Positions 32,499 through 56,563 of a stretch of DNA of 64,000 nt are shown piece after piece. The position numbers and the translations under genes were made by a program. The DNA is from Escherichia coli (GTDB lineage: Bacteria; Pseudomonadota; Gammaproteobacteria; Enterobacterales; Enterobacteriaceae). Numbering within the stretch: the first letter of the stretch is position 1; every line of letters starts with the position of its first letter. Where the stretch lies: the NCBI RefSeq assembly GCF_002854065.1, contig NZ_CP024147.1. One strand, 5' to 3'. The notes below the pieces were generated by a model that saw nothing but the letters and a program-made list of their open reading frames with translations, made no database searches and was not told the origin of the DNA.

Positions 32499-32506
32499 GG
32501 TGAATT

Positions 32507-33214
32507 ATGGATTTGAATAAATTCGATGAGCCATTCAGCCCTGAAGATATCGAATGGCGAATACAGCAAAGCGGTAAAACACGCGATGGCAAGGTGTGGG
32601 CTATGGTGCTGGCTTATGTAACGAACCGGGCAATCATGAAACGCCTGAACGATGTTTGCGGCAAAGCAGGATGGCGCAATGAATACCGCGATATTCCCAA
32701 CAACGGCGGAGTTGAATGCGGCATATCAATCAGGATTGATTCCGAATGGGTAACCAAATGGGATGCTGCTGAAAACACGCAGGTAGAAGCCGTCAAAGGT
32801 GGTCGTTCCGGCGCAATGAAGCGCGCTGCCGTTCAATGGGGAATCGGTCGGTATCTGTATAACCTTGAGGAAGGTTTCGCACAAACATCTCTCGATAAAA
32901 AGCAGGGGTGGCACAGGGCAAAACTGAAGGATGGAACAGGATTTTACTGGCTCCCTCCATCGCTGCCGGGATGGGCAATACCAGCATCAGATAACAAACC
33001 ATCACCAGAAAATACCAACCAGAAATCTCCATCGGTTGACTGCGAACAAATCCTGAAAGACTTCAGCGATTATGCATCAACAGAAACTGACAAGAAAAAA
33101 CTCATCGAGCGTTATCAGCGTGACTGGCAATTAATGGCTGGCAACGAGGAGGCGCAGGCTAAATGCGTTCAGGTAATGAGCATCAGAGTTAACGAACTAA
33201 AACAGGCGGCATAA
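32507..33214 (+). CDS. Rad52/Rad22-type single-strand annealing protein (phage recombinase)
   Basis: 235-aa ORF immediately upstream of a phage SSB gene; sequence resembles Rad52-family phage proteins. Confidence 0.55.
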   Translation: MDLNKFDEPFSPEDIEWRIQQSGKTRDGKVWAMVLAYVTNRAIMKRLNDVCGKAGWRNEYRDIPNNGGVECGISIRIDSEWVTKWDAAENTQVEAVKGGRSGAMKRAAVQWGIGRYLYNLEEGFAQTSLDKKQGWHRAKLKDGTGFYWLPPSLPGWAIPASDNKPSPENTNQKSPSVDCEQILKDFSDYASTETDKKKLIERYQRDWQLMAGNEEAQAKCVQVMSIRVNELKQAA

Positions 33215-33721
33215 ATGGCAAGCAGAGGCGTAAATAAGGTGATTATCCTTGGTCGGGTAGGACAAGACCCGGAAGTTCGATACTCACCATCAGGAACAGC
33301 GTTCGCTAACCTGACAATAGCCACGTCAGAACAATGGCGAGATAAAAATACTGGCGAGCAAAAGGAATTGACTGAATGGCATCGTGTTGCTGTATCCGGG
33401 AAACTGGCTGAGGTCGTGGGGCAGTATGTGAAAAAAGGTGATCAGATTTATTTCGAGGGAATGCTGAGAACCAGAAAGTGGAAAGACCAGTCAGGGCAAG
33501 ACCGTTACACAACCGAGGTTCATGTCGGAATTAATGGCGTGATGCAAATGCTTGGCGGCATTGGCGACAGCAAACAACAAGCAGCCAGCAGGCAATCACA
33601 GAAGCCACAGCAGCAATCATCACCAGCACAACACAACGAACCTCCGATGGATTTTGACGACGATATACCCTTTGCACCAGTAACTCTCCCCTTCCCTCGT
33701 CACGCTATTCACGCAATTTAA
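33215..33721 (+). CDS. ssb: Single-stranded DNA-binding protein (phage SSB)
   Basis: 168-aa ORF with OB-fold N-terminus ([18 protein letters not shown]...) and acidic C-terminal tail DFDDDIPF. Confidence 0.85.
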
Positions 33722-33734
33722 TCAGGAGAAAATC

Positions 33735-34031
33735 ATGCCAGCGCCTCTGTATGGTGCGGATGACGCGCGCCGCTGTTCCGGCAATTCCGTATCGGAGGTG
33801 CTGGATAAATTCAGGAAAAACTACAACCGGATAATGTCGCTACCGCAGGAAACGAAAGAGGAAAAGGAATTTCGCCACTGTATATGGCTTGCAGAGAAAG
33901 AAGAACGCGAGCGAATTTACCAGACATCAATCCGACCATTCCGCAAAGCCACATATACCCACTTCCCTGAATATATCGACCCGCGCCTGCGTAATTACCG
34001 CTCACGCTATGGCGCTATCAGTAATGACTGA
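33735..34031 (+). CDS. Hypothetical phage protein
   Basis: 98-aa ORF in co-oriented phage early-gene string. Confidence 0.4.
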
Positions 34032-34040
34032 GGAATTTAC

Positions 34041-34205
34041 CATGAGAGGACTTGCATACAATCCCGGAATTCTTCCGGCAGAAATGATTATTCGCCAACG
34101 CGTAAAGCCAATGCCATCGAGAGAGGAATTGCTTAAGAGAAAGAGTTTCGGTTCTGTTAATGACAACAAATATCTGAATGCGATGTGGCTGAGTGGGAAG
34201 AAATG
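34041..34205 (+). CDS. Hypothetical small phage protein
   Basis: 54-aa in-frame segment from ATG 34041 within ORF 33889-34206; start uncertain. Confidence 0.3.
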
Positions 34206-34685
34206 AAACAAATGACACTAATTGAGATGGATGGATTTCTGAAAGGTAAATGCATCCCATGTGATTTAAAGGTTAACGAAACAAACGCTGAATATCTTGT
34301 GCGTAAGTTCGGTGAACTTGAATCAAAACTAGAAACGGCGTTGCGGGAGTGTAGTTCTGCTGGAATCACGATTGATAACCTTGAGGCCAAGTGCGCGAAG
34401 ATGGCTGCTGAAAATACCTCGCTTAAGCAATCTGAGAAGGAATTTAATGACTTTTGTCGTGAGGAGTTTAGCGAATGGGAAGATGATGTTACTGAAACCC
34501 CAGCCACCGATGCTTTCCTGGCTGAAGTACGGGCGCAGGGGGTAGAGATGTACGCAGATAACCTCGACAACGGAGCAGACGACGCAGAACGAGGTGGTTT
34601 TGATTATGCCGCTAAGTTTCTACGCGGTGAGGCGTCTAGTGTACGCTTGTTCGCCGACCAGCTTCGCAAAGGAGGCAACCAGTGA
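34185..34685 (+). CDS. Ead/Ea22-like phage protein (start may be ATG 34203)
   Basis: 166-aa ORF with coiled-coil/acidic features typical of lambdoid Ea22-like proteins. Confidence 0.5.
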
Positions 34686-35161
34686 GCAAGATTAACTATC
34701 AGGCACTGCGTGAGGCGGCGGAACGTGCAATTCCAGCAATGGAACGCCTGTTAATGTTGCCAGTTGATGATGATTTGTTAAGTGAACAGGAACTTAAAGA
34801 TTACGGTGTGGATATTGATGCGCTCAACGCCTTCAAATTTCTGACCGGACCAGAAACCGTGCTGGCGCTGCTGGATGAGCTGGAAAGAAAACAGCAATAC
34901 ATCAAATCCCGAGACCAGGAGAACGAGGATATTGCGCTAACGGTAGGGAAGCTGCGCGTTGAGCTGGAAGCCGCAGAGAAGCGCATTGCTGAGCTGGAGT
35001 TGCGGGAGGTTGTGCTTCCGCAATGCTATAGCATGTTGCATCGCGTCGATTTTGACGAGCCTTACCACACTGAAATGGTTTACAGGCAGCATCAGGTTCT
35101 TGAGGCACTGCACAACGCTGGAATAAACGTCACCGAAGCAGGTAAAGGAGAGGCATCATGA
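34682..35161 (+). CDS. Ead/Ea22-like phage protein
   Basis: 159-aa ORF, coiled-coil region (LRVELEAAEKRIAELELRE); overlaps neighbours by 4 nt. Confidence 0.5.
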   Translation: MSKINYQALREAAERAIPAMERLLMLPVDDDLLSEQELKDYGVDIDALNAFKFLTGPETVLALLDELERKQQYIKSRDQENEDIALTVGKLRVELEAAEKRIAELELREVVLPQCYSMLHRVDFDEPYHTEMVYRQHQVLEALHNAGINVTEAGKGEAS

Positions 35162-35670
35162 GCACTATCACAAGAGAATGGCTGCAGCAGGCTATCAACG
35201 ATTATGAAAGCGTTCGTGATGAGCTTCCTTTCGGGCTTGATGATTACCAGGGGAATATCCTGGCTGCCCTGCGTATCGCACTGGCATCGCTGGAAGCAGA
35301 GCCGGTGGCGTGGAAGGTAACATTCACGCAAATTGACCGTGAATATAACACGTTCACTGGTATGTATTCTGACAAAGCAGAAGTCGAACGGTGGGTGCGG
35401 CTGCATAAAGCATGTAATTTTCGGGCAGATATAACACCGCTTTATACCGCCAAGCCAGTGCCGGTAACTCCGGATGGTTGGATAAGCTGTAGTGAGCGAA
35501 TGCCAGAGGACGGTCAGCACGTAATTATTTTATGTGATGGCGCATTCGTTCTTTATGCGCAATATCGAGACGGAGAGTTTTTCGATATTGTCCGCAATGG
35601 TGATGAATTTTTCGAAACACAGAGTCGCAATGTAACCGACTGGATGCAACTACCAGAACCTCCCCTTTGA
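35158..35670 (+). CDS. DUF551-type phage protein
   Basis: 170-aa ORF; C-terminal region (PDGWISCSERMPEDGQHVIILCDG) resembles DUF551. Confidence 0.5.
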   Translation: MSTITREWLQQAINDYESVRDELPFGLDDYQGNILAALRIALASLEAEPVAWKVTFTQIDREYNTFTGMYSDKAEVERWVRLHKACNFRADITPLYTAKPVPVTPDGWISCSERMPEDGQHVIILCDGAFVLYAQYRDGEFFDIVRNGDEFFETQSRNVTDWMQLPEPPL

Positions 35671-35766
35671 TAGCTAAGCTTATACATATCTTTTACATCA
35701 GCAATCTATTGTTAATCTCCAATCAATGTTACGTTGTCATCTCTCTCATGCTTTGGAGGTAGTGAT

Positions 35767-35958
35767 ATGTCTTGTCCAAAATGCGGTTCTGGAAATATTG
35801 CAAAAGAAAAAACAATGCGTGGATGGTCTGATGATTATGTGTGCTGCGATTGCGGATACAACGACTCTAAAGACGCATTTGGAGAGCGTGGTAAAAACGA
35901 GTTTGTCAAAATTAATAAAGAACGCGAAGGCGGTGATGCTGCCAACTTACTGATTTAG
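35767..35958 (+). pseudogene. Phage zinc-ribbon protein with C-terminus altered by IS1 insertion (native end ...EREGNEKS reconstructed across the IS)
   Basis: CxxC...CxxC motif (MSCPKCGSG...YVCCDCGY); GGAGGT RBS 6 nt upstream of ATG 35767; reading frame runs into the IS1 terminal repeat. Confidence 0.55.
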
Positions 35959-35986
35959 TGTATGATGGTGTTTTTGAGGTGCTCCA

Positions 35987-36262
35987 GTGGCTTCTGTTTC
36001 TATCAGCTGTCCCTCCTGTTCAGCTACTGACGGGGTGGTGCGTAACGGCAAAAGCACTGCCGGACATCAGCGCTATCTCTGCTCTCACTGCCGTAAAACA
36101 TGGCAACTGCAGTTCACTTACACCGCTTCTCAACCCGGTACGCACCAGAAAATCATTGATATGGCCATGAATGGCGTTGGATGCCGGGCAACCGCCCGCA
36201 TTATGGGCGTTGGCCTCAACACGATTTTCCGCCATTTAAAAAACTCAGGCCGCAGTCGGTAA
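35987..36262 (+). CDS. insA: IS1 InsA
   Basis: 91-aa ORF. Confidence 0.9.
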
Positions 36263-36684
36263 CCTCGCGCATACAGCCGGGCAGTGACGTCATCGTCTGC
36301 GCGGAAATGGACGAACAGTGGGGATACGTCGGGGCTAAATCGCGCCAGCGCTGGCTGTTTTACGCGTATGACAGGCTCCGGAAGACGGTTGTTGCGCACG
36401 TATTCGGTGAACGCACTATGGCGACGCTGGGGCGTCTTATGAGCCTGCTGTCACCCTTTGACGTGGTGATATGGATGACGGATGGCTGGCCGCTGTATGA
36501 ATCCCGCCTGAAGGGAAAGCTGCACGTAATCAGCAAGCGATATACGCAGCGAATTGAGCGGCATAACCTGAATCTGAGGCAGCACTTGGCACGGCTGGGA
36601 CGGAAGTCGCTGTCGTTCTCAAAATCGGTGGAGCTGCATGACAAAGTCATCGGGCATTATCTGAACATAAAACACTATCAATAA
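36181..36684 (+). CDS. insB: IS1 transposase InsB
   Basis: 167-aa ORF. Confidence 0.9.
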
Positions 36685-36823
36685 GTTGGAGTCATTACCC
36701 GCGAAGGCAACGAAAAAAGCTAATTTATTTATTCATATATGAAAACAATGTAATAAATATTCGAATTGAAGAATTGAAAGAACACCAAGCCGCCTGATGG
36801 CGGTTTTTTATTGGAGACAAGAA

Positions 36824-37168
36824 ATGTCAGATTTGGCTATGAAGGTTTTGAAATGGCAATCGACTGGCGATGTCGGCATCAGTAGCGCAACTCTTGCCTC
36901 AATCGCATGTGGCCTGAAAAAGAATATCTATGGTCATCACTTCGGCGCTCCCCATGACGCAGCAGACTTTCGGCGATGCGTTGCACTTGTTGAGCAGATT
37001 CCAGAAATCAGAGATTCATTCGACAAGGTTGCAAAGCGCGTTCCGGCATTCAAAGGAATCCTCAACGAATGGGATTCACTCGTTGCTCTGTTGAAGTCTG
37101 AAATGAAGACGTACGGGAACAAAGCACCAGAGACTTACAGAAGAATCAGCGAGCTACGCAAGGACTAA
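36824..37168 (+). CDS. Hypothetical phage protein (moron-like unit bracketed by hairpin/T-run elements)
   Basis: Start at ATG 36824 (MSDLAMKVLKWQ...) with GGAGA RBS; GC hairpin plus T-run at 36789-36809 and a similar element at 37209-37229. Confidence 0.45.
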   Translation: MSDLAMKVLKWQSTGDVGISSATLASIACGLKKNIYGHHFGAPHDAADFRRCVALVEQIPEIRDSFDKVAKRVPAFKGILNEWDSLVALLKSEMKTYGNKAPETYRRISELRKD

Positions 37169-37245
37169 CGCCTCACACTCGATGAGGCCTGTACATATCT
37201 GATAGATCCGCTATATGGCGGTTTATTTTTGCCTGGAGAATTAAG

Positions 37246-37437
37246 ATGACCGATACCAGCCTGATTCCTGAGAAAGAAGTGATGAACAAGCTCGGTGTTT
37301 CATCACGTCAGACAATCTGGAACTATACCAAACGGCACGGATTTCCGAAGCCAGTCAGAACCCACCCCAAATCATACCTTCGTGAAGCTGTTGAAGGGTG
37401 GATTCTTAACGGTGGCGTTAATCAGAAATGCTCCTGA
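37246..37437 (+). CDS. alpA: AlpA-family phage transcriptional regulator / excisionase-like
   Basis: 63-aa ORF with HTH (VSSRQTIWNYTKRHGFPKP), convergent with and adjacent to integrase. Confidence 0.7.
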   Translation: MTDTSLIPEKEVMNKLGVSSRQTIWNYTKRHGFPKPVRTHPKSYLREAVEGWILNGGVNQKCS

Positions 37438-38596
37438 TGTGCCAGAACAATTTATCAGCGTGAAGCTCATACGCTTTGCGCTGAGCCTCTATCCAGTCGT
37501 GTTTATTGTATACGGACATTATCCCGCCAAGTTCATGACCGAGCATTCGCTCAGTAACATGAGGCTCGACATTCATCTCGGACAGACGTGTAACAAGCGT
37601 TCTTCTGAAATCGTGTGTTCGCCAGTAACCTAGATCCATCCCTCCCCTTATTCTATTTACGAATCGGTTGGCTGCAGCGATGCTGATCGGTTTGTTTATG
37701 TCTTCTCCAGGGAAAAGAACATCATTGTACGTTGTCATGGCCTTTTCGAGGAAAGGCTTAATTTGTTCGAAGATTGGACGGCGGATAACATTACCCATCT
37801 TGCTATGCTCTTTCGGTACGGTCCATACGTTTTCCAGCAGGTCAAATTCTGTCTTTTTTGCCAGCCTAAGCTCTGAGAGCCTCGCCCCCCACAGCATAAG
37901 CATCTGATGAAGTAGCTTATTTGACGTAGACGCACGGCTTCTTTCAATAGCAAGCCAAATCTTAGCCAGTTCGTGATACGACAGTACCCGATCCCCTACC
38001 TCAGCGCGGGAGCCGAAGTCCCTTGGTTGGATGCTCATAATTGCGCAACTATCTATCAACTGACGCCGCATGCACCAACTTATTGCTGATCTTAGTTGAC
38101 TTAGCACCTGCCTTGCTCGGCGTGGATTATCTCTTTCTTCTTCGGTAAGCAGGTCAACCCATTGCTTAACCGTGATAGAAGATGCCGGACGATTAGGAAA
38201 GGCGTCATGCATGCGCTTCATAACCGTTGATCGGTAAAGTGCCTGGGTCTTTTCTCTGAGAGTTGTAGAGACGTAGTTGTCGAACCAGTAGTCGAGACAC
38301 TGGGCGACCGTCATGGAGTTCTCCACCTTCTCTTCAAAATAAGTGCGTGGATCCGTTCCTGAGAAATAGAGCTTTCGCAAGTCAGCAGTGATCTGTCTGG
38401 CATCCTTCAAAGACAGGGATGGGTATCGACCAAGCCCAAGTCGATTAGGCTTGCCATGCCAGCGATAGCGGTACTGGAACTGGATGACCCCCTTCGGTGA
38501 AATTCGTACGCTGAGGCCATCGGCATCAGCCACTTCTTGTGGGCCCGAATATGGTTTACCATAAATACTACGCAGTTTTGTGTCGCTTATAGCCAT
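37418..38596 (-). CDS. int: Tyrosine-type phage integrase (P4-type, N-terminal arm-binding domain)
   Basis: 392-aa ORF with integrase catalytic region (HDFRRT...LGH...Y); adjacent to attR. Confidence 0.85.
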   Translation of the reverse strand: MAISDTKLRSIYGKPYSGPQEVADADGLSVRISPKGVIQFQYRYRWHGKPNRLGLGRYPSLSLKDARQITADLRKLYFSGTDPRTYFEEKVENSMTVAQCLDYWFDNYVSTTLREKTQALYRSTVMKRMHDAFPNRPASSITVKQWVDLLTEEERDNPRRARQVLSQLRSAISWCMRRQLIDSCAIMSIQPRDFGSRAEVGDRVLSYHELAKIWLAIERSRASTSNKLLHQMLMLWGARLSELRLAKKTEFDLLENVWTVPKEHSKMGNVIRRPIFEQIKPFLEKAMTTYNDVLFPGEDINKPISIAAANRFVNRIRGGMDLGYWRTHDFRRTLVTRLSEMNVEPHVTERMLGHELGGIMSVYNKHDWIEAQRKAYELHADKLFWHIRSISD

Positions 38597-38605
38597 AAAT
38601 AATAT

Positions 38606-38648
38606 TTGGTACGCTCAGAAATAATGGTTTGGTACACATCTGGTACAC
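38606..38648. repeat. Direct repeats TTTGGTAC(G/A)C x3, putative integrase arm-type sites (attR side)
   Basis: tttggtacgc 38606-38615, tttggtacac 38628-38637, ctggtacac 38640-38648; matching pair on attL side at 23638-23660. Confidence 0.5.
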
Positions 38649-38777
38649 AATATCACATGGACAACAGCGCACAGTAAACAACTATATTTGACGTTCGTAG
38701 ACATACTCAGGTGAAAAAATGGTTGTTTTTCGAGTTATAACAGACAGTTAATTAACTACAGTGGACAATGCTAGACA

Positions 38778-40202
38778 ATGACAGACGCAGATAAACAACC
38801 TACCTTCCTCTTTCACGATTACGAAACCTTTGGCACGCACCCCGCGTTAGATCGCCCTGCACAGTTCGCAGCCATTCGCACCGATAGCGAATTCAATGTC
38901 ATCGGAGAACCCGAAGTCTTTTACTGCAAGCCCGCTGATGACTATTTACCCCAGCCAGGAGCAGTATTAATTACCGGTATTACCCCGCAGGAAGCACGGG
39001 CGAAAGGAGAAAACGAAGCCGCGTTTGCCGCCCGTATTCACTTGCTTTTTACCGTACCGAAGACCTGTATTCTGGGCTACAACAATGTGCGTTTCGACGA
39101 CGAAGTCACACGCAACATTTTTTATCGTAATTTCTACGATCCTTACGCCTGGAGCTGGCAAAACCGCAATTCGCGCTGGGATCTGCTTGACGTGATGCGC
39201 GCCTGCTATGCCCTGCGCCCGGACGGCATCAACTGGCCGGAAAACGACGACGGTCTGCCGAGCTTCCGCCTGGAACATCTCACCAAGGCCAACGGTATTG
39301 AACACAGTAACGCCCATGATGCGATGGCCGACGTTTACGCGACCATCGCCATGGCGAAGCTGGTGAAGGCCCAACAGCCAAAGCTGTTTGATTATCTGTA
39401 TGCCTACCGGGGCAAAAACAAGCTGATGACGCTGATTGACGTCCCGCAGATGAAGCCACTGGTGCATGTCTCGGGAATGTTTGGCGCCTGGCGCGGAAAC
39501 ACCAGCTGGATTGCGCCGCTGGCCTGGCATCCGGATAACCGTAATGCGGTGATCATGGTCGACCTGGCGGGCGACATCGCCCCGCTGCTCGAGCTGGATG
39601 CCGATACGCTGCGCGAGCGCCTGTATACGCCGAAGGCCGAGCTCGGCGACAGTTCGCCGGTGCCGATTAAGCTGGTGCATCTGAATAAGTGCCCGGTGCT
39701 GGCGCAGGCCAATACCCTGCGCCCAGAAGACGCTGACCGTTTAGGCATTAACCGACAGCACTGCCTGGATAACCTGAAACTGCTGCGCGATAACCCGCAG
39801 GTGCGCGAGAAGGTGGTGGCGATTTTTGCTGAAGCCGAGCCGTTTGTCGCATCGGACAACGTCGACGCCCAGCTTTATAACGGTTTCTTTAGCGACGCCG
39901 ACCGCGCGGCGATGAAAATCGTGCTGGAGACCGAGCCGCGCAATCTGCCGGCGCTGGACATTACCTTCGCCGACCCGCGTATTGAGAAGCTGCTGTTTAA
40001 CTTCCGCGCGCGCAACTTCCCCGGCACGCTGGATGAAAACGAGCAACAGCGCTGGCTGGAACACCGTCGGCAGATCTTCACCCCGGAATTTTTACAGGCC
40101 TACGCCCAGCAACTGGAGATGTTGTACGGTCAGTATGAGGGGAATAACGAGAAGCTATCGCTGCTGAAGGCGCTGTATCAGTACGTGCAGGAGATTGTTT
40201 AA
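38778..40202 (+). CDS. sbcB: Exodeoxyribonuclease I, with phage-supplied promoter and first ~11 codons (MTDADKQPTFLF...)
   Basis: 474-aa ORF with DnaQ-like exonuclease N-terminus (FLFHDYETFG); hairpin terminator 40211-40241 downstream. Confidence 0.9.
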   Translation: MTDADKQPTFLFHDYETFGTHPALDRPAQFAAIRTDSEFNVIGEPEVFYCKPADDYLPQPGAVLITGITPQEARAKGENEAAFAARIHLLFTVPKTCILGYNNVRFDDEVTRNIFYRNFYDPYAWSWQNRNSRWDLLDVMRACYALRPDGINWPENDDGLPSFRLEHLTKANGIEHSNAHDAMADVYATIAMAKLVKAQQPKLFDYLYAYRGKNKLMTLIDVPQMKPLVHVSGMFGAWRGNTSWIAPLAWHPDNRNAVIMVDLAGDIAPLLELDADTLRERLYTPKAELGDSSPVPIKLVHLNKCPVLAQANTLRPEDADRLGINRQHCLDNLKLLRDNPQVREKVVAIFAEAEPFVASDNVDAQLYNGFFSDADRAAMKIVLETEPRNLPALDITFADPRIEKLLFNFRARNFPGTLDENEQQRWLEHRRQIFTPEFLQAYAQQLEMLYGQYEGNNEKLSLLKALYQYVQEIV

Positions 40203-40255: not shown

Positions 40256-40480
40256 TTATTTCTGTACGGTGATGGTCCACGCCGCATCGCCAGACTGCTG
40301 ATAGTCCGTGACCGTAAAGCCCTCTTCCGCCGCCCACTGCGGGATGGCTTCCGTCGCCTGAGTACAGTCGAACTCAATCACCAGCTGGTCGCCGCTGGCC
40401 AGTTCCGCCATCGCCGCCTTCGCTTCAATTAACGGGAACGGGCAAACCTGCGTGACTACGTCCAGTTTCTTCACAACCAT
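40256..40480 (-). CDS. yeeD: TusA-like sulfurtransferase
   Basis: 74-aa ORF with CPxP motif (VCPFPLIEAK). Confidence 0.85.
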   Translation of the reverse strand: MVVKKLDVVTQVCPFPLIEAKAAMAELASGDQLVIEFDCTQATEAIPQWAAEEGFTVTDYQQSGDAAWTITVQK

Positions 40481-40525
40481 TTTTTCTACTCCTTAAGCCG
40501 TTGCGGTTTTCAGTTTTGCTTTCCG

Positions 40526-41494
40526 CTACGGGCGAACATACAACATCCACGACGCGCACCACACGCCGAGAATCATAAATACCAGGCCAATCCAGCCCTG
40601 CCAGGTCATCATCGCCGTCATCACCAAACCGTTGCCGATCGAGCAGCCGCCGGCAATGCTGGCACCGAAGCCCATCAGTACGCCGCCACCCGCGCTACGC
40701 AGCGTGGTGCTGGCATCGGCAGCGCGGACGCGGAATTCACGGCTGGCTTTCGCGGCAATAAACGAACCGATAAAGATTCCCAGCACCAGGAAGACGCCCC
40801 AGTTGAGGTACTTGCTGTCACCCCCCACCAGGAACTGCAGGATATTGGCGGTCGGCGAGGTAATGCCAAGGCCAAACATACGTCCGGTGGCCTCACTCAG
40901 CGGCCAGGCCAGCAGGGCGATAAGGCCAATCAGCACGGCGGTCACAAACGGATGCCAACGCTTTTCAAACAGCAGATGCGCCAGGCCAGTGCGGCGCGGC
41001 GGCAGAGAAGCTACTTTGAGCTTTGGTTTGCTCAGCTCTTTGCGAACAAACCACAGGGTCACCGCCACCAGCAGAACGATAAGTGGCCAGACGGAGATAT
41101 TCAGGGTTTCGGCAATGCCGTTGTGAGTGGTCGTGTGTTGACCGAGGAATTTGTTAAGCCCAGCCGCGTGCGGTGAACGCATGATCGCGCTCATCACCAT
41201 ATAGGTGACCAGTGCAATCCAGCTGCCAATCAGCCCTTCCCCGGCACGATACCAGGTGCCGGTGGCGCAGCCTCCCGCATAAACGATACCGATACCAAAA
41301 ACAAATCCACCCACCACGGTGCCAAGCCACGGGAACGCGCCTGCATCGTACTGCACCAGGCCAAGCTGGATCAGGGCGAACACGCCGATACTCTGGATAC
41401 AGATAGCAATCAACAGTGCGTAAAACATGCGGTTATTTTTGGTGATATACATATCGCGAAAGCCACCCGTCAGGCAGAAACGACCGCGCTGCAT
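40526..41494 (-). pseudogene. yeeE: YeeE/YedE-family transporter, 5' end severed by IS1 (first ~14 codons lie beyond the IS at ~42283-42330)
   Basis: 322-aa membrane ORF abutting the IS1 end; minus-strand sequence after the IS encodes MIISGMICGAL..., completing the native N-terminus across the 9-bp duplication. Confidence 0.75.
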
Positions 41495-41560
41495 AACGAA
41501 TCCCAGGTGATGCTGCCAACTTACTGATTTAGTGTATGATGGTGTTTTTGAGGTGCTCCA

Positions 41561-41836
41561 GTGGCTTCTGTTTCTATCAGCTGTCCCTCCTGTTCAGCTA
41601 CTGACGGGGTGGTGCGTAACGGCAAAAGCACCGCCGGACATCAGCGCTATCTCTGCTCTCACTGCCGTAAAACATGGCAACTGCAGTTCACTTACACCGC
41701 TTCTCAACCCGGTACGCACCAGAAAATCATTGATATGGCCATGAATGGCGTTGGATGCCGGGCAACTGCCCGCATTATGGGCGTTGGCCTCAACACGATT
41801 TTACGTCACTTAAAAAACTCAGGCCGCAGTCGGTAA
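41561..41836 (+). CDS. insA: IS1 InsA
   Basis: 91-aa ORF. Confidence 0.9.
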
Positions 41837-42258
41837 CCTCGCGCATACAGCCGGGCAGTGACGTCATCGTCTGCGCGGAAATGGACGAACAGTGGGGCTA
41901 TGTCGGGGCTAAATCGCGCCAGCGCTGGCTGTTTTACGCGTATGACAGTCTCCGGAAGACGGTTGTTGCGCACGTATTCGGTGAACGCACTATGGCGACG
42001 CTGGGGCGTCTTATGAGCCTGCTGTCACCCTTTGACGTGGTGATATGGATGACGGATGGCTGGCCGCTGTATGAATCCCGCCTGAAGGGAAAGCTGCACG
42101 TAATCAGCAAGCGATATACGCAGCGAATTGAGCGGCATAACCTGAATCTGAGGCAGCACCTGGCACGGCTGGGACGGAAGTCGCTGTCGTTCTCAAAATC
42201 GGTGGAGCTGCATGACAAAGTCATCGGGCATTATCTGAACATAAAACACTATCAATAA
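41755..42258 (+). CDS. insB: IS1 transposase InsB
   Basis: 167-aa ORF (FTSLKK variant). Confidence 0.9.
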
Positions 42259-42460
42259 GTTGGAGTCATTACCCGAATCCCAGTAAAGCCCCGCAAATCA
42301 TGCCACTTATTATCATGTGCAACATAAGAATCAATTAACTCAATATTATCAGTCTTAAAATTATTCCTGACCCCGCCGGACGGCTCCAATAACCAAAAGC
42401 TCTATATTATTCCCGACGGTTATTAATATTGATTTTTTAATCACCCCACAAACTTAAGAC

Positions 42461-42490
42461 AAAAAAAACCGGAGGCCCAGACCTCCGGTT
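42461..42490 (-). terminator. Terminator downstream of plaP
   Basis: Hairpin ccggaggcccagacctccgg with A-run on plus strand (T-run on minus). Confidence 0.6.
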
Positions 42491-42515
42491 TTGCAACCAT
42501 CGTTTTTAAATTCAG

Positions 42516-43874
42516 TTATGCAACATCTTCGTACTGCGGAACCGGGTTGCGGAAGCTTTTGGTCACACAGGCCAGGTAGATCAGACCGATACCGGCCCAG
42601 ATCAGGCCCAGAACCATAGAGCTCTCTTCCAGGTTCACCCACAGTGCGCCAACGGTCAGCGCGCCGCAGATTGGCAGGAACAGGTACTGGAAGTGATCTT
42701 TCAGCGTCTTATTACGCTTCTCACGGATCCAGAACTGAGAGATAACGGACAGGTTCACGAAGGTGAACGCCACCAGCGCACCGAAGTTAATCAGCGCCGT
42801 TGCCATCACCAGGTCGAAGTTAATCGCCAGCAGCGCAATCGCGCCAACCAGGATGATGTTCATCGCCGGGGTGCGCCAGGTTGGATGCACGTAGCCGAAG
42901 AAGCTTTTCGGGAACACGCCATCACGGCCCATCACGTACATCAGACGCGCCACACCCGCATGCGCCGCCATACCGGAAGCCAGCACGGTAATGGTGGAGA
43001 AGATCAGCGCGCCAACCTGGAAGGCTTTACCCGCCACGTACAGCATGATTTCAGGCTGTGAGGCGTCCGGATCTTTGAAGCGAGAGATATCCGGGAAGTA
43101 GAGCTGCAGGAAATAGGTGGAGAAGATAAAGATCAGGCCACCAATCAGCGCCGTCAGGAAGATAGCACGCGGAATCACACGCTCAGCGTCTTTGGTTTCT
43201 TCAGACAGGTTGCTGATACCGTCAAAACCGGTAAAGGAGAAGCACAGAATCGTGGCCCCGGTAATCATAGGGATCACGTGCGCATCACCCGACCAGAACG
43301 GACGGTTGCTTGCCAGCGTACCGGCACCTTCGCCGTGCGCCACGCCATAAATCACCATACCTAGGATCACGGCAATCAGTACCACCTGGAACACCACGAT
43401 CACGGTGTTAAAGTTGGCGACAGATTTGATGCTGCGCAGGTTAAAGGCGGTCATAAAGGCAACCAGTGCAATCACGAATACCCATGACGGTATCGACGGC
43501 ACCAGCGCTTCGAAATAGATTTTTGCCAGCAGAATGTTGATCATCGGCGCGAACAGATAATCGAGCAGCGAAGACCAACCCACCATAAAGCCAACGGTCG
43601 GGCTGATGGATTTCTGGGCATAAGTGTAGGCAGAGCCCGCCGAAGGATAACGGCGCACCAGCTTACCGTAGCTCAGCGCGGTGAACAGAATTGCCACCAG
43701 AGCGAAGGCATAAGCTGTTGGCACGTGACCATCGGTCATGCCAGATACGATACCGAACGTATCAAACAGCGTCATCGGCTGCATATAGGCCAGGCCCATC
43801 ATAACAACCGGAATAAGCGTAAGCGTTTTACGTAATTCCACGCGAGAGGTGTTTGGAGTAACGTTATGCGACAC
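42516..43874 (-). CDS. plaP: Amino acid/polyamine permease (putrescine importer PlaP)
   Basis: 452-aa 12-TM APC-family ORF; synteny. Confidence 0.85.
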
Positions 43875-44221
43875 GGTCAGTCTCCATTACGGCGATGGCC
43901 GGCGCAAAATTGAAAAATTGCCCCATTTTTTTTCTGTTTCCTCAGCGACAACGACTGTCGTTTTTTAAGTAAGTATCTATCCGGTACGAAGCCCGGCCTC
44001 TTTAATTTGATGGTTGTTTTGATGTAAAAAAAATAACCGACGCGGCAAGCACGTCGGTTAATCTCAATTTTTTACATTCGACATATTTTGCCCCAAACGG
44101 TAGCAAAAAGACAAGCCGCTGAGAGCATAATCAGCACGCCTTCTCGTCTAAACGACTGATAATTCAGCAACTCCCGAATCATAAATCTCATCAATAGCAC
44201 TATTTGCTAAAACAGCGGCGA

Positions 44222-45043
44222 TTATTCCATCGGCATACGTAACGGGTCAGGATACTGATACTCAAAGCCGAGCTCGCGGCAAATGAGATTACCGTCGATG
44301 ATTTTGCCTTTTCCATTACCGCTGTCGCTAAAGCTCGGAACCGCTAACCCCAGCTCACGCGCCATTTGCGGATAGAAAATACCGCGAGCGGGATGCAACG
44401 GCGCACAAATGTTATAAATGTGTCCACCCTTCGGCGCCTGTAATAAAAGCGTAATAGCAGAGACAACATCTTCCAGATGGACGAGATTCACGCCGTGCTG
44501 ACCATCCGGCGCGGATTTACCTGCGAAGAAACGTCCCGGATGCCGATCCGGCCCCACCAGCCCCGCCAGACGCAGAATATCCACCGACGTCCCCGGCAAT
44601 TGATGAAGCCAGTCTTCCAGCTCTTTTAATACTCTGCCGCTAGCGGTAACCGGTTCACGCGGCGTGCTCTCTTTTACCAGCCCTTCTTCTTTACCGTAGA
44701 CCGAAGTGGAGCTGGTAAAGATAATGCGCGGAATCTGGTACGCCAGCGCGGTGTCCACAATCTCCTGCACCGCCTGATGATAGAAATCTTCGCCCGGACC
44801 GCTGCGGCGCGCGGGGAGCGTAATGACCAGCGCGTCAACATTCATTAAAGCATCAAGGTCATCAGCCTCACAGACCAGCTGCGGATCGAGCCGCAACGGA
44901 TAGCTATCAATCCCGCACATCCGTGCGGCTTCCACGCCATCCTCTGTCGTTTTACTGCCCGTTACCTGCCAGCCGCGCGCCATCAACGACAGCGCCAGCG
45001 GCATACCCAGCCACCCTAAACCGACAATTGCCACCTTCTTCAT
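44222..45043 (-). CDS. yeeZ: NAD-dependent epimerase/dehydratase family protein
   Basis: Start at internal ATG (MKKVAIVGLGWLG Rossmann motif) with AGGAGA RBS; 274 aa. Confidence 0.8.
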   Translation of the reverse strand: MKKVAIVGLGWLGMPLALSLMARGWQVTGSKTTEDGVEAARMCGIDSYPLRLDPQLVCEADDLDALMNVDALVITLPARRSGPGEDFYHQAVQEIVDTALAYQIPRIIFTSSTSVYGKEEGLVKESTPREPVTASGRVLKELEDWLHQLPGTSVDILRLAGLVGPDRHPGRFFAGKSAPDGQHGVNLVHLEDVVSAITLLLQAPKGGHIYNICAPLHPARGIFYPQMARELGLAVPSFSDSGNGKGKIIDGNLICRELGFEYQYPDPLRMPME

Positions 45044-45149
45044 TGCGCTATCTCCTGGTTCATCCTGCACTCCTCTCATAAGGCTACGCCACAGCGAGAA
45101 AACTGACAATTTATAGTGGTAACATGAATTGATTTAATGAATGAAAAAA

Positions 45150-45190
45150 GCGCTTGCGCTCAACGACAAAAGTGGTTTAGGTTAAAAGAC
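45150..45190 (+). promoter_or_regulatory. his operon promoter region (approximate)
   Basis: Location upstream of hisL; TAGGTTAAAAG -10-like element as remembered for the enterobacterial his promoter. Confidence 0.4.
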
Positions 45191-45221
45191 ATCAAGTGAA
45201 TAGTCATTCAACGAGAAATTT

Positions 45222-45272
45222 ATGAGCCGCGTTCAATTTAAACACCACCATCATCACCATCATCCTGACTAG
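45222..45272 (+). CDS. hisL: his operon leader peptide (7 consecutive His codons)
   Basis: atg agc cgc gtt caa ttt aaa cac cac cat cat cac cat cat cct gac tag = [16 protein letters not shown]. Confidence 0.95.
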
Positions 45273-45369
45273 TCTTTCAGGCGATGTGTGCTGGGAGACA
45301 TTCAGATCTTCCAGTGGTGCATGAACGCAAGAGAGCCCCCGGAAGATCATCTTCCGGGGGCTTTTTTTT
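45273..45369 (+). promoter_or_regulatory. his attenuator with terminator hairpin 45335-45369
   Basis: Perfect 13-bp stem gcccccggaagat/atcttccgggggc followed by T8, between hisL and hisG. Confidence 0.9.
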
Positions 45370-45403
45370 GAACCAAATTCAGCAGGGTAATGAGGAATAC
45401 AGA

Positions 45404-46303
45404 ATGTTAGATAACAGCCGTTTACGCATAGCTATTCAGAAATCAGGCCGCCTGAGCGATGATTCACGCGAATTACTGGCCCGTTGTGGTATCAAAATCA
45501 ATCTCCACACCCAGCGCCTGATCGCGATGGCGGAGAACATGCCGATCGATATCCTGCGCGTTCGCGATGACGATATTCCGGGGTTGATTATGGATGGCGT
45601 GGTCGATCTCGGCATTATCGGTGAAAACGTTCTGGAAGAAGAGCTGCTGAGCCGCCGCGCGCAAGGCGAAGACCCGCGCTACTTTACCCTGCGTCGTCTG
45701 GACTTCGGCGGCTGCCGTCTGTCGCTGGCGACCCCGGCGGATGAAGCCTGGAACGGCCCGGCTGCGCTCGACGGCAAACGTATTGCCACCTCTTACCCAC
45801 ACCTGCTCAAACGTTATCTCGACCAGAAAGGCATCAGCTTTAAATCCTGCCTGCTGAACGGCTCTGTTGAAGTGGCCCCGCGTGCCGGTCTGGCCGACGC
45901 CATCTGCGACCTGGTATCAACCGGCGCGACGCTGGAAGCCAACGGCCTGCGTGAAGTAGAAGTGATGTTCCGCTCTAAAGCCTGCCTGATTCAACGCGAC
46001 GGCGAGATGAGCGACACCAAGCAGCAGTTGATTGACCGTCTGTTAACCCGTATTCAGGGCGTGATTCAGGCGCGCGAATCGAAATACATCATGATGCACG
46101 CGCCAACCGAACGCCTGGAAGAAGTGATTGCCCTGCTGCCGGGTGCCGAGCGCCCAACCATTCTGCCGCTGGCGGGCGACCAGCAGCGCGTGGCGATGCA
46201 CATGGTCAGCAGCGAAACCCTGTTCTGGGAAACCATGGAAAAACTGAAGTCCCTGGGTGCCAGCTCGATTCTGGTACTGCCGATTGAGAAGATGATGGAG
46301 TAA
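45404..46303 (+). CDS. hisG: ATP phosphoribosyltransferase
   Basis: Start at ATG 45404 ([17 protein letters not shown]...), 299 aa. Confidence 0.9.
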
Positions 46304-46308
46304 GCGCC

Positions 46309-51813
<5,505 letters not shown>

Positions 51814-51820
<7 letters not shown>

Positions 51821-52413
51821 CTGAACAACTGGACTGGCAAAAAACCGACGGACTGATGCCCGCCATTATCCAACACGCGGTATCCGGTGAAGTGCTGATG
51901 CTGGGCTATATGAACGAGGAAGCGCTGGCCAAAACGCAGGAAACGGGCAAAGTGACCTTTTTCTCGCGCACCAAACAGCGCCTGTGGACCAAGGGTGAAA
52001 CCTCCGGCCACTTCCTCAATGTGGTAAGCATCGCGCCCGACTGCGACAATGACACTCTGCTGGTGCTGGTTAACCCGATTGGCCCGACCTGCCATAAAGG
52101 CACCTCAAGCTGCTTCGGCGACACCAGCCACCAGTGGCTGTTCCTGTATCAGCTTGAGCAGCTGCTGGCCGAGCGTAAAAACGCTGACCCGGCAAGTTCA
52201 TACACCGCTAAGCTGTACGCCAGCGGCACCAAGCGTATCGCGCAGAAAGTGGGTGAAGAAGGCGTGGAAACCGCGCTGGCCGCCACGGTGCACGATAAGT
52301 TTGAGCTGAAGAATGAGGCGTCGGATTTGATGTATCACCTGCTGGTGCTATTGCAGGATCAGGAGCTGGATTTGACGGCGGTGATTGAGAATTTGCGGGA
52401 ACGGCATAAGTAA
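51814..52413 (+). CDS. hisI: Bifunctional phosphoribosyl-AMP cyclohydrolase / phosphoribosyl-ATP pyrophosphatase
   Basis: 199-aa ORF; last gene of his operon. Confidence 0.9.
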
Positions 52414-52423
52414 CGGATAAATT

Positions 52424-52452
52424 TGAGCCCGGCGATAACACCGGGCTTTATT
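52424..52452. terminator. Bidirectional terminator between hisI and ugd
   Basis: Hairpin gcccggcgataacaccgggc flanked by T/A runs. Confidence 0.6.
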
Positions 52453-52469
52453 ATTGCTGCACGAACCTG

Positions 52470-53636
52470 TCAATCATTACCAAACAGATCGCGGGTATAC
52501 ACCTTCTCTTTCACATCAGCCAATTCTTCCGCCATTCGGTTAGAAATGATGACATCCGCTTCTTGCTTAAATGCATCCAAATCGCGTACAACGCGGGAAT
52601 TAAAGAATTCATCTTCTTTCATCGCAGGTTCATACACAATCACTGGAATGCCTTTCGCTTTGATTCGTATCATAATCCCTTGAATCGAAGATGCGCGGAA
52701 ATTGTCGGATCCTGACTTCATGACGAGGCGATATACCCCAACCACTTTCGGCTTGCGGGCCAGGATGGAATCGGCAATAAAATCCTTGCGGGTACGGTTA
52801 GCGTCAACAATCGCACCGACGATGTTATTTGGCACAGACGCATAATTTGCCAGCAGTTGTTTAGTATCTTTCGGGAGGCAATATCCACCATAACCAAAAG
52901 ATGGATTGTTATAGTGATTACCGATGCGCGGGTCCAGGCACACGCCTTCAATAATCTGGCGGGAGTTCAGGCCCAGGCTTTCCGCATAGCTATCCAGCTC
53001 GTTGAAATAAGCCACGCGCATCGCGAGGTAGGTGTTCGCGAATAGCTTGATAGCTTCGGCTTCGGTCGAGTCGGTGAACAGCGTCGGGATATCCTTCTTC
53101 ACTGCCCCTTCCTGCAGCAGCGCGGCAAAACGCTCGGCACGCTCAGAACGTTCGCCGATAACGATACGCGACGGATGCAGGTTGTCGTACAGCGCACGGC
53201 CTTCGCGCAGGAATTCCGGCGAGAAGAAAATATTGTCGATACCCAGTTTTTCTTTAATCGAATTGGTAAAGCCTACCGGAATGGTAGATTTGATAACCAT
53301 CACCGCGTTGGGGTTGATTTCAACGACGTCACGGATAACAGACTCAACGCTGGACGTATTGAAATAGTTCGTTTTGGGGTCGTAATCGGTCGGAGTGGCG
53401 ATGATCACATAGTCTGCATCGCGATAAGCATCGCGCTTATCAGTGGTCGCACGGAAATTCAGCGGTTTGGTCGCCAGATACTCTTCGATCTCTTTGTCGA
53501 CGATCGGCGACTGTTTCTGATTCAGCATGTCGACCTTGGCCTGAACGATATCCAGGGCCACCACTTCGTGGTGCTGGGCGATCAGAATGCCGTTCGACAG
53601 GCCGACGTAACCTGTTCCTGAAATAGTTATCTTCAT
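52470..53636 (-). CDS. ugd: UDP-glucose 6-dehydrogenase
   Basis: 388-aa ORF ([16 protein letters not shown]...GGYCLPKD catalytic Cys motif). Confidence 0.9.
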
Positions 53637-53784
53637 TCGCTCTGTAACTTCTTCCGGTTAAACATTTGAGGGTGAATGCATCACCACCGTGGGACCCAAC
53701 GTTGTCGGATCGGCTTGCCGCCAGTATATCGCGAATTACCGCGTCGCCGCCTATCAGACCTGACTGAATGCTGTTTTCAGACAA

Positions 53785-53815
53785 TAAAAAAGCCCGGAGA
53801 TGCGCTCCGGGCCTG
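53785..53815 (-). terminator. Terminator downstream of gnd
   Basis: Hairpin gcccggagatgcgctccgggc with A-run on plus strand. Confidence 0.6.
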
Positions 53816-53839
53816 GCTTTACGGATGAACTAATTCAGA

Positions 53840-55246
53840 TTAATCCAGCCATTCGGTGTGGAACACACCTTCTTTATCAGTGCGTTTATAGGTATGCGCG
53901 CCGAAGTAGTCACGCTGAGCCTGAATCAGGTTCGCCGGCAGTACCGCAGCGCGGTAGCTATCGTAGTACGCCACTGCTGCAGAGAAGGTCGGTACCGGAA
54001 TACCGTTCTGCACAGCATAGGCCACCACGTCACGCAGCGCCTGCTGGTATTCATCAGCGATATTTTTGAAGTACGGTGCCAGCAGCAGGTTGGCGATACT
54101 CGCGTTTTCAGCGTAGGCGTCGGTGATTTTCTGCAGGAACTGTGCACGAATGATGCAGCCCGCGCGGAAGATCTTCGCGATTTCGCCGTAGTTCAGATCC
54201 CAGTTGTACTCGTCAGACGCGGCACGCAGCTGAGAGAAGCCCTGCGCGTAGGAGACGATTTTACCCAGGTACAGTGCGCGACGCACTTTCTCAACGAACT
54301 CTGCTTTATCGCCAGCCAGTTTAGCCTGCGGGCCAGTCAGCACTTTAGATGCCGCCACGCGCTGGTCTTTCAGGGAGGAGATGTAGCGCGCGAAAACAGA
54401 TTCAGTGATCAGCGACAGCGGTTCGCCCAGGTCCAGAGAGCTCTGGCTAGTCCATTTACCGGTGCCTTTGTTCGCCGCTTCGTCGAGGATCACATCAACC
54501 AGGTATTTACCGTCTTCATCTTTTTTGGTGAAGATGTCTTTGGTGATGTCGATCAGGTAGCTGCTCAGCTCGCCTTCATTCCACTCGGTGAAGGTGGTTG
54601 CCAGCTCTTCGTTAGACAGGTTCAGGCCGCCTTTCAGCAGAGAATAGGCTTCAGCAATCAGCTGCATGTCGCCGTATTCGATACCGTTGTGGACCATTTT
54701 CACGTAATGACCCGCACCGTCAGCACCGATGTAGGTTACGCAAGGCTCGCCGTCTTCAGCTACAGCAGCAATCTTGGTCAGGATAGGCGCAACCAACTCA
54801 TACGCTTCTTTCTGGCCGCCAGGCATGATAGATGGGCCCTTCAGCGCGCCCTCTTCGCCGCCGGATACGCCGGTACCGATGAAGTTAAAGCCTTCAGCAG
54901 ACAGCTCACGGTTACGACGAATGGTATCCTGGAAGAAGGTGTTACCACCATCAATGATGATGTCACCTTTATCAAGGTAAGGTTTCAGGGAATCGATGGC
55001 AGCATCGGTGCCCGCGCCTGCTTTCACCATTAACAGGATACGACGTGGGGTCTCAAGAGACTCGACGAACTCCTTGACCGTGTAGTGAGGAACCAGCTTT
55101 TTGCCTGGATTCTCAGCGACAACTTCTTCGGTTTTTTCACGGGAGCGGTTGAAGATAGAGACGGTATAACCACGGCTTTCGATGTTGAGCGCCAGGTTGC
55201 GCCCCATCACAGCCATACCGACTACGCCGATTTGTTGCTTAGACAT
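53840..55246 (-). CDS. gnd: 6-phosphogluconate dehydrogenase (decarboxylating)
   Basis: 468-aa ORF ([21 protein letters not shown]...). Confidence 0.95.
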
Positions 55247-55417
55247 TACATACTCCTGTCAGGTAGTATCTGTCTATGAACAGACAGAATTTAAGAAATT
55301 ATATATTAGGAGAACGACAAGTTGTATAAAGAAATAGATGTTTGAGTGAAATTAATAACTGTCATAAGTAACTAAAAAAACGCATAGCGACAAGCTCAGA
55401 TAAGTTGTTGCTCAATA

Positions 55418-56563
55418 TTAGAGCACTTCTTGCATTGTGAGTTTATTATAGATTTGAACGGTTTTTCGTATGACAACGGTAGATGAATACTTTTCCTCTA
55501 CTCGCTTTCTGGCATTCTGCCCCATCTTAGTGCGCTCAAGAGGATCGCTAATAAGGATACCAAGCTTCTGAGAAAATAGGTTCACATTTCCTTTAGGCAC
55601 AAGGAAACCGTTATAACCGTCAAGTATTAAACTCCCACAACCACCAGTGTCAAAACTTATAACAGGACGACCGATTGCACCGGCTTCTAAAAGAATTCGA
55701 GGAATACCTTCAGAGTAAACAGATGGCAAAGCGACTATATCCACACTTTCAATTAATTCCTTGATATCGCTACGCTTGCCCAGCCAAATGATATCACCGG
55801 AGTTATGCCACTCTTCTATCTGAGTTATACTTATAGCGTCGCGATCATTGTCAACAAGAATGCCCGCAACTAATATCTCAAATTCGATGCCTTGTAATTT
55901 TAAAATTCTACTAGCATCAATTAACGTGCGTAGCCCTTTACTCCAAAGCATGCGACTTGCAAAAAAAACTTTAACCTTGGTATTATTAGGTGGTGTACTA
56001 TAACAAAAATAGTCTATATTAATACCTGCGCCATCAATAACTTCAGTTTTATTTTTTGGAATATCTAATAGTTCAATTATTTTTTGCTGATCTTTTTTAT
56101 GTTCAAAGAGGATACAACAATCAATATTTAAGAAAAATCTTCTATACATATTAGCAATTAAGAACTTAACCATTTGGTAAATGACCTTATTGCTTTCAAA
56201 AACTCTACCTAACCCAACAAAACTATAGACCATTTTTTTGTTTCGGATTCTGGCCCATAAACAACTAATCACACCAGGTTTAATCGTGACGCTATGCACA
56301 ATATCAGGATTAATTTTATTCAATGTTCTAAATGAGCGAGTTATATCGCAAAAGAAAACAACAGGATTGATATTTTGCTCTTTTATTTTACTATCAATAC
56401 ACTTAAATCCTAAACTAGTAAAGCGATCCAGAATAGACTTGTCAGAATAATTCGCAAAAATATAGACATCATATCCTGCTTCCAGAACTGATAAGGCACG
56501 ATCTAACCAATGTAATTCGAAATACCAAGCGGAGTTCACAAAATAACATATCTTTATTTTCAT
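55418..56563 (-). CDS. Glycosyltransferase family 1 (GT4-type), O-antigen cluster
   Basis: 381-aa ORF with C-terminal GT1 motif (...EGIPRILLEAGAIGRPVISFDTGG...); AT-rich. Confidence 0.7.
   Translation of the reverse strand: MKIKICYFVNSAWYFELHWLDRALSVLEAGYDVYIFANYSDKSILDRFTSLGFKCIDSKIKEQNINPVVFFCDITRSFRTLNKINPDIVHSVTIKPGVISCLWARIRNKKMVYSFVGLGRVFESNKVIYQMVKFLIANMYRRFFLNIDCCILFEHKKDQQKIIELLDIPKNKTEVIDGAGINIDYFCYSTPPNNTKVKVFFASRMLWSKGLRTLIDASRILKLQGIEFEILVAGILVDNDRDAISITQIEEWHNSGDIIWLGKRSDIKELIESVDIVALPSVYSEGIPRILLEAGAIGRPVISFDTGGCGSLILDGYNGFLVPKGNVNLFSQKLGILISDPLERTKMGQNARKRVEEKYSSTVVIRKTVQIYNKLTMQEVL

Follow-up and report, generated by a model that had tools for sequence, protein, structure and literature searches.

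Switching of the O antigen in Escherichia coli through recombination in the conserved flanking genes carries gnd and the his operon along. Hitch-hiking around rfb/gnd, together with intergeneric gnd alleles, is said to have been described in the classical work of Nelson and Selander (1994) and of Milkman. Here, we analysed a stretch of 64,000 nucleotides from E. coli (contig NZ_CP024147.1 of RefSeq assembly GCF_002854065.1, hereafter ‘the window’), in which the genes plaP, yeeZ and hisL lie close together and the LysR-type regulator gene yeeY and the yefM-yoeB toxin-antitoxin pair are missing from between them. This compact arrangement and the gene absences are, with high confidence, explained by a block of Kluyvera-derived DNA that replaced its E. 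coli counterpart by homologous recombination. We conclude that an allelic exchange spanning tens of kb, and not local deletion, removed the genes, because the flanking genes are foreign and the layout is natively that of Kluyvera. Compared with the hitch-hiking around rfb/gnd, the block is unusually long (~67 kb), uniformly foreign, delimited by sharp junctions and only 72-87% identical to the recipient, and it alters gene content (yeeY, yefM-yoeB, wzzB) besides alleles.

A second point of comparison is given by the Klebsiella-derived capsule and O-antigen regions of E. coli, which are rare intergeneric imports at the yegH-his locus with close matches in the other genus (PMC6128206). Like those regions (group 1 capsule; O8/O9-type beside his), the block described here is an intergeneric import into the yegH-his polysaccharide locus. 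Unlike them, it has Kluyvera as its donor, it is not bracketed by insertion sequences (IS) but ends in plain homologous crossovers in sbcB and mdtA, and it has swapped the colanic acid cluster for a Kluyvera-type orthologue instead of losing it; in addition, a LysR gene has been retained between plaP and yeeZ in the Klebsiella-type allele but not in the Kluyvera type. In E. coli LZYWN_4, the region is of Klebsiella type and reads fusA-arsR-plaP-LysR-yeeZ-his, its proteins having accessions typical of that genus; the locus has here received a further intergeneric import, and its left-hand neighbourhood differs. Intergeneric replacement at this hotspot is thus already known; the novelty lies in the genus of the donor, in how long and clean the block is, and in the changes of gene content that come with it. 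In the searchable literature, which does not cover the original O52 cluster paper, we found no paper linking Kluyvera and serogroup O52, and a wider search for Kluyvera together with recombination and colanic acid yielded nothing of relevance.

In K-12 (NC_000913.3), the gene order is plaP-yoeI-yeeY-yeeZ-yoeB-yefM-hisL, in line with the first-pass annotation of the window, which had placed yeeY and yefM-yoeB in these gaps. From the listing of open reading frames (ORFs) and the sequence itself, we measured 347 bp between plaP and yeeZ and 178 bp between the yeeZ start and hisL, close to the ~350 bp and ~180 bp it had given. Its suggestion that yeeY, yefM and yoeB are absent was also borne out: a six-frame tblastn search of the window with the K-12 proteins (E<=10, word size 2) found no orthologue. 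Across the whole window, the YeeY query picked up nothing beyond noise and its LysR paralogues cbl and nac (12.2-13.6 kb), YefM and YoeB gave noise only at E<=10, and the 178-bp spacer had no relic of the pair; PlaP, YeeZ, HisL and the YoeI-like ORF were all recovered by the same search. The features of the region are the following.

38778-40202, + strand: sbcB, a mosaic gene; first codons from the prophage end, 38794-39137 E. coli-like, 39161 onward Kluyvera-like
39138-39160: left crossover, 23 nucleotides without diagnostic sites, inside sbcB
40256-40480, - strand: tsuB (yeeD), Kluyvera-type allele; NCBIfam NF041048, 160 bits; protein identical to that of K. georgiana
40493-42325, - strand: tsuA (yeeE), thiosulfate transporter gene; Kluyvera-type allele
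42516-43874, - strand: plaP, putrescine/H+ symporter; Kluyvera-type allele; 96% amino acid identity to K-12 PlaP (tblastn)
43864-43926, - strand: yoeI-like ORF of 20 codons, overlapping the plaP start; 12 of 20 residues identical to K-12 YoeI (tblastn, E=1e-4)
44025-44101, - strand: homologue of the small RNA STnc240; Rfam RF02074, 60 bits (gathering score 55), full-length model
44148-44213, - strand: relic of the yeeY 3' end, beginning 8 nucleotides past the yeeZ stop
44222-45043, - strand: yeeZ, SDR-family epimerase-like protein of 273 amino acids; intact, Kluyvera-type allele
45044-45221: yeeZ-hisL spacer, containing the his promoter region
45222-45272, + strand: hisL leader peptide; 15 of 16 residues matching K-12 HisL (tblastn), seven consecutive His codons
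45248-45369, + strand: His operon leader (attenuator) RNA; Rfam RF00514, 123 bits, full length (model positions 1-126)
45404-52413, + strand: hisGDCBHAF-IE, Kluyvera-type alleles; hisG begins at 45404
52470-55246, - strand: ugd and gnd, Kluyvera-type; 90.2% identical to K. georgiana versus 73-86% to K-12
55418-64000, - strand: 3' half of an O52-type, ABC-transporter-dependent O-antigen cluster, continuing past the window end

The change of ancestry is abrupt. In the alignment to K-12, positions 1-23583 are 93-100% identical, 23584-38793 is a prophage without counterpart, and the same 93-100% holds for all of 1-39137 once the prophage and an IS1 copy at 8635-9405 are set aside. Between 39161 and 55264 the overall identity is 72-87%, with 77.8% for sbcB-tsuA, 82.7% for plaP, 72.7% for yeeZ, ~82% for the his operon, 72.7% for ugd and 86% for gnd, and the block reaches at least gnd (55264) within the window. 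The GC content rises from 47-50% to 52-59% near 39 kb and is 36-43% in the O-antigen genes. Every 400-nucleotide segment between 39.2 and 55.2 kb is nearer Kluyvera georgiana (80-99%) than K-12 (67-89%); at this scale, plaP is 97-99% identical to K. georgiana versus 81-89% to K-12, and the his operon 87-99% versus 77-87%.

For the donor, we scanned one genome per bacterial species for relatives of YeeZ. The top match was K. georgiana ATCC 51603 (97% amino acid identity), followed by K. cryocrescens and Kluyvera genomosp. 1 (93% each) and a gut Enterobacteriaceae isolate grouping with them (92%); every other genus reached 88% at most, and YeeZ of both E. albertii and K-12 stood at 82%. At the DNA level, window positions 42274-49043 align with K. 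georgiana in a single 6.8-kb block at 95.1% identity with two gap openings, and over the longer locus the identity is 88.5% for sbcB-tsuA, 94.0% for plaP-hisI (10.1 kb) and 90.2% for ugd-gnd. In a ranking over 80 species loci, K. georgiana came first with 93.8%, the three other Kluyvera loci had 84-86% and the remaining 76 Enterobacteriaceae loci no more than 84%. Since K. georgiana is closest both across the 400-nucleotide segments and in this ranking, the donor is, as judged from sequence identity, a Kluyvera near the K. georgiana type strain and distinct from it. A cryptic Escherichia clade was rejected as the source: the loci of E. albertii and Escherichia sp. retain yeeY, encode proteins 93-99% like those of K-12 and have only 81-82% YeeZ identity to the window allele.

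Four Kluyvera loci, further K. georgiana-like contigs and a 126-kb metagenome contig of the Kluyvera clade are all arranged as dacD-sbcB-tsuB-tsuA-plaP-yeeZ-hisL-hisG, with neither yeeY nor yefM-yoeB between plaP and hisG. As both this order and the exact yeeY junction recur there, the compact layout is the native Kluyvera arrangement. The junction could be characterised by aligning the plaP-yeeZ spacer of the window with the yeeY-bearing loci of Pseudocitrobacter, Salmonella, Yokenella and K-12. Homology ends 2-10 nucleotides past the yeeZ stop and restarts in the final yeeY codons, indicating that nearly the whole of yeeY (~0.9 kb) was deleted and that the LysR ORF of ~300 amino acids between yeeZ and plaP was reduced to ~11-21 C-terminal codons. 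The minus strand from 44213 translates as AVLANSAIDEIYDS..., a remnant of the YeeY C-terminus, where Pseudocitrobacter has ...AVLANSAIAAVY... and K-12 has ...ILANSAIAGVY... at the corresponding position. The junction recurs unchanged in K. georgiana, K. cryocrescens, Kluyvera genomosp. 1, the gut Enterobacteriaceae isolate and the metagenome contig, and a similar one in Superficieibacter, Kosakonia and Phytobacter. Because all Kluyvera-clade sequences have the same junction, the deletion is old and a property of the donor clade rather than of E. coli.

The absence of yefM-yoeB has a different background. K-12 carries this type II toxin-antitoxin locus in the same slot between yeeZ and hisL, whereas the window has neither the pair nor a relic of it and shows 29 bp (45115-45143) in place of 724 bp, a spacer too short for the two ORFs. 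In the blastn comparison, window 44219-45114 corresponds to positions 10302-11194 of the K-12 locus (L002), and 45144 onward to 11919 onward. The pair was found between yeeZ and hisG in none of the 80 non-coli species loci, E. albertii included, and is carried by 4217 of the 5426 complete E. coli genomes (missing in 1209, or 22%), and yefM-yoeB is thus an insertion that arose in the E. coli lineage and varies in occurrence there. The E. albertii type strain and Escherichia sp. MOD1-EC7003 have ~208 bp of unrelated filler instead of the pair between yeeZ and hisL flanks that are 97-98% K-12-like, which makes them useful for dating the toxin-antitoxin insertion within Escherichia. The absence of yeeY is the rarer signal (present in 5417 and missing in 9 of the 5426 genomes), and the present import accounts for most of it.

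A megablast search with window positions 42400-45500 against the same complete genomes recovered the Kluyvera-type plaP-yeeZ allele in 5 of 5426: four genomes at 99.9% or more (100416, CUWW06, EC24 and MEI4BO-21) and SY3626 at 98%. The remaining E. coli genomes matched at only 80-90%, and over plaP only. Strain 100416 is 99.95% identical to window positions 42274-64000, with 11 mismatches in 21.7 kb.

The left end of the block lies inside sbcB. Sliding identity along the gene is at least 98% to K-12 up to ~39150 and then ~75% to K-12 and 93-95% to K. georgiana. From the runs of diagnostic sites in a three-way alignment of window, K-12 and K. georgiana, the last E. coli-type site is at 39137, at the end of an almost uninterrupted run, and the first Kluyvera-type site at 39161, after which nearly all sites are of the Kluyvera type. 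EC24, CP142552.1 and SY3626 are 99-100% identical to the window over this crossover. For the right end we turned to strain 100416, where the divergent DNA runs on through an O52-family wzm/wzt cluster, galF and the whole colanic acid cluster (~78% identical to K-12) into yegH, asmA, dcd, udk, dgcE, alkA and yegD. The divergence stops within mdtA: identity to K-12, 63-83% before this point, is 98-100% after it and remains high over the following 40 kb. The block in strain 100416 thus measures ~67 kb from sbcB to mdtA, and we infer the same extent for the window's own genome. Outside the block, the left 39 kb of the window and both flanks of 100416 are E. coli-like, the left flank being 98.8% identical to the K-12-like part of the window; the records are also filed as E. 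coli in RefSeq. None of the marks of a mobile island that we looked for (attachment (att) sites, direct repeats, IS, an integrase of its own, a tRNA gene) bounds the block, whose ends are in-frame crossovers in orthologues.

The first-pass annotation had attributed the missing genes to strain-level accessory variation next to the his/O-antigen recombination hotspot. The position beside the hotspot does matter; gene-by-gene loss in an E. coli backbone is not supported, as the flanking core genes are foreign. Separate local deletions of yeeY and yefM-yoeB would account for genes that are truly absent, for a pair that is variable to the extent of being missing in 1209 of 5426 E. coli genomes and for a region that adjoins a known recombination hotspot. 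They would, however, leave yeeZ and plaP of E. coli type, when these are 72.7% and 82.7% identical to K-12 and 92-99% to K. georgiana, and they would have to produce in E. coli, where yeeY is otherwise present in 5417 of 5426 genomes, a yeeY junction identical to that of four Kluyvera species. We regard such ordinary deletions as extremely unlikely. The same holds for the converse idea that the window stems from a Kluyvera or hybrid organism or from a chimeric assembly, with the E. coli-like left part being foreign or an artefact. Half of the non-prophage window is indeed Kluyvera-like, but the Kluyvera-type plaP-yeeZ segment occurs in five complete genomes filed as E. coli in RefSeq, two further records found by exact-protein look-up (CP142552.1 and the EC24 assembly) are 99.7-100% identical over the sbcB crossover, and strain 100416 has E. 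coli-like flanks on both sides, 98.8% identical to the window on the left and 98-100% to K-12 over at least 40 kb on the right. The junction is common to independent assemblies from Gambia, Thailand and elsewhere, and because the sbcB crossover recurs in several E. coli genomes that were assembled independently, an assembly artefact is unlikely.

A lambdoid prophage (23584-38793) interrupts sbcB at its 5' end and comes within ~345 bp of the left crossover, and an integrase gene lies beside sbcB in CUWW06 and SY3626, with a truncated one in 100416. This would invite the explanation that the prophage mobilised the block or carried it over from a Kluyvera lysogen, in specialised or lateral transduction. 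Yet the sbcB crossover is identical in EC24 and CP142552.1, which are free of the prophage, and it is off the att core, with E. coli-type sequence (38794-39137) in between; on these two grounds we rejected the prophage as the vehicle. The head capacity of lambdoid phages is below 67 kb, and a block of this size is too large for it. Delivery by this prophage is therefore very improbable. Prophage and IS1 copies are elements in their own right that vary between strains, EC24 and CP142552.1 having no such prophage.

For the way in which the Kluyvera DNA entered, we propose the following. A long Kluyvera fragment may have entered by conjugative mobilisation or large-capacity generalised transduction, and RecA-dependent crossovers would have taken place at short identical stretches, the left one of 23 nucleotides, despite ~20% divergence. 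With one crossover in sbcB and the other beyond the window (in mdtA in 100416), the exchange brought the native Kluyvera gene order into the E. coli chromosome, the cargo within the window being tsuBA, plaP, yeeZ, the his operon, ugd, gnd and the start of the O52 cluster. On this account, yeeY is missing owing to the ~0.9-kb deletion that occurred long ago in the donor clade and left its scar behind the yeeZ stop, and yefM-yoeB because the cassette is peculiar to E. coli and was not found in the Kluyvera loci examined. The selected trait would probably have been the new O antigen, with the neighbouring genes carried along; the his attenuator, yeeZ and plaP are intact within the block.

The gene content of the O-antigen part links the block to serogroup O52. 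Within the window we identified genes for GT4, an FkbM-glycosyltransferase (FkbM-GT) of 719 amino acids and a further glycosyltransferase (GT), followed by gmhB, hddC, gmhA, hddA and dmhA'; the sister genomes also have wzm and wzt, with O52-family annotation. The E. coli O52 cluster (ABC-transporter type; 6-deoxy-D-manno-heptose and D-Fucf) shares gmhA, gmhB, hddA, hddC, dmhA and the FkbM-GT with the window, and its published gene content agrees with the window genes (PMC7685785); the origin and flanks of the cluster are not discussed in that review. Among 5.8 billion clustered proteins, the FkbM-GT had a single close non-coli relative (86% identity), located on metagenome contig Ga0133256_132309. 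This contig, whose nearest species is K. cryocrescens (87%), carries an entire O52-like cluster in the same gene order between galF and gnd, as well as the compact plaP-yeeZ-his layout and the same yeeY scar. Its identity to window 47101-64000 (his, ugd-gnd and the O-antigen part) is uniformly ~87%, with 87.4% collinear over the O-antigen part, and the remainder of the cluster, galF and the colanic acid end align with strain 100416 in one 14.6-kb stretch at ~87%. As the divergence is uniform over housekeeping and O-antigen genes, the comparison suggests that the O52-like cluster belongs natively to the Kluyvera clade and was brought into E. coli along with the flanking genes.

It is somewhat more probable than not, in our estimate, that serogroup O52 obtained its O-antigen cluster by a single en-bloc import of ~67 kb from Kluyvera, spanning sbcB to mdtA and also replacing the his operon and the whole colanic acid cluster; a rare 67-kb intergeneric import probably founded the O52 locus. 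Several points weigh against the account given here. The right junction was observed in the sister genome 100416 only, outside the window. None of the sampled Kluyvera exceeds 98% identity, so none qualifies as the actual donor, and K. georgiana, at 88-95%, has a different O-antigen cluster, its type strain having no O52-like cluster beside gnd. The contig Ga0133256_132309 is placed in the Kluyvera clade by sequence similarity and shared synteny only, and the transfer route rests on inference and not on direct observation. A look-up by the K. georgiana Gnd protein led to other genomes with unrelated Wzx/Wzy-type clusters.

What looked like two small gene losses in this way becomes evidence that a very large segment of chromosome was replaced by that of another genus. 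Where gene content differs beside the O-antigen locus, the difference can have come with the import of an entire foreign block, and pangenome studies that score yeeY, yefM-yoeB or wzzB as present or absent can mistake such by-products for independent events. The Kluyvera clade is the likely source of the O52 cluster and a donor genus to watch for at this hotspot; if the en-bloc import is true, Kluyvera would be a previously unrecognised donor of surface-polysaccharide diversity in E. coli, beside Klebsiella. On a practical level, the exact mosaic junctions in sbcB and mdtA can be used for lineage tracing. Furthermore, the hybrid SbcB and MdtA proteins, together with the swap of the colanic acid and his genes, constitute a natural test of core-gene exchangeability between genera at ~80% DNA identity.

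Past the yeeY scar, the STnc240/terminator module, the yoeI-like ORF and the plaP leader are kept, at positions as in K-12, Salmonella and Pseudocitrobacter. The syntenic position of STnc240, upstream of yoeI-plaP, is the same in K-12, Salmonella, Pseudocitrobacter and K. georgiana. STnc240, a small RNA candidate of Salmonella, lies downstream of yeeY in relatives and directly downstream of yeeZ in the window. A terminator scan identified a strong intrinsic terminator in the homologue (stem 44060-44034, then a T-run), and this predicted terminator probably now ends yeeZ transcription. A promoter scan of the spacers gave no more matches than shuffled sequence.

The yeeZ-hisL spacer is also the site of a further exchange in SY3626. 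This strain shares the Kluyvera-type sbcB'-tsuBA-plaP-yeeZ segment at 99-100% identity and switches at the spacer (~45200) to another foreign his operon, ~82% identical to K-12 and 76-88% to the window, so that a second breakpoint lies exactly in the compact spacer. At the other end of the his operon, wzzB, encoding the O-antigen chain-length regulator, is missing between hisIE and ugd (52414-52469), where K-12 has it; a layout without wzzB fits both an ABC-transporter-type O antigen and the Kluyvera-clade layout, and K. georgiana has epimerase and acyltransferase genes in this slot.

Within the block, tsuA is doubly inactivated in the window: an IS1 copy at 41507-42273 interrupts it near codon 15, with the target duplication GAATCCCAG, and a CAG>TAG nonsense mutation at 40526-40528 lies 11 codons ahead of the normal stop. 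In CUWW06 and strain 100416 tsuA is intact and this IS1 copy is absent. Four IS1 copies in 64 kb (8635-9405, 31520-32287, 35931-36701 and 41507-42273) mark an IS1-rich strain, and strain 100416 has several IS1B copies near the same region. The second and third of these copies lie inside the sbcB prophage, which is flanked by an att duplication of ~30 bp and gives SbcB a new N-terminus, MTDADKQP... in place of MMNDGKQQS...; in strain 100416 most of this prophage is deleted next to an IS1. Strain 100416 also shows a dip to 87-89% K-12 identity at baeS/mdtD (31.9-32.8 kb of the locus) inside DNA that is otherwise 98-100% identical, ~8 kb past the right crossover, which may be a separate small recombination patch.

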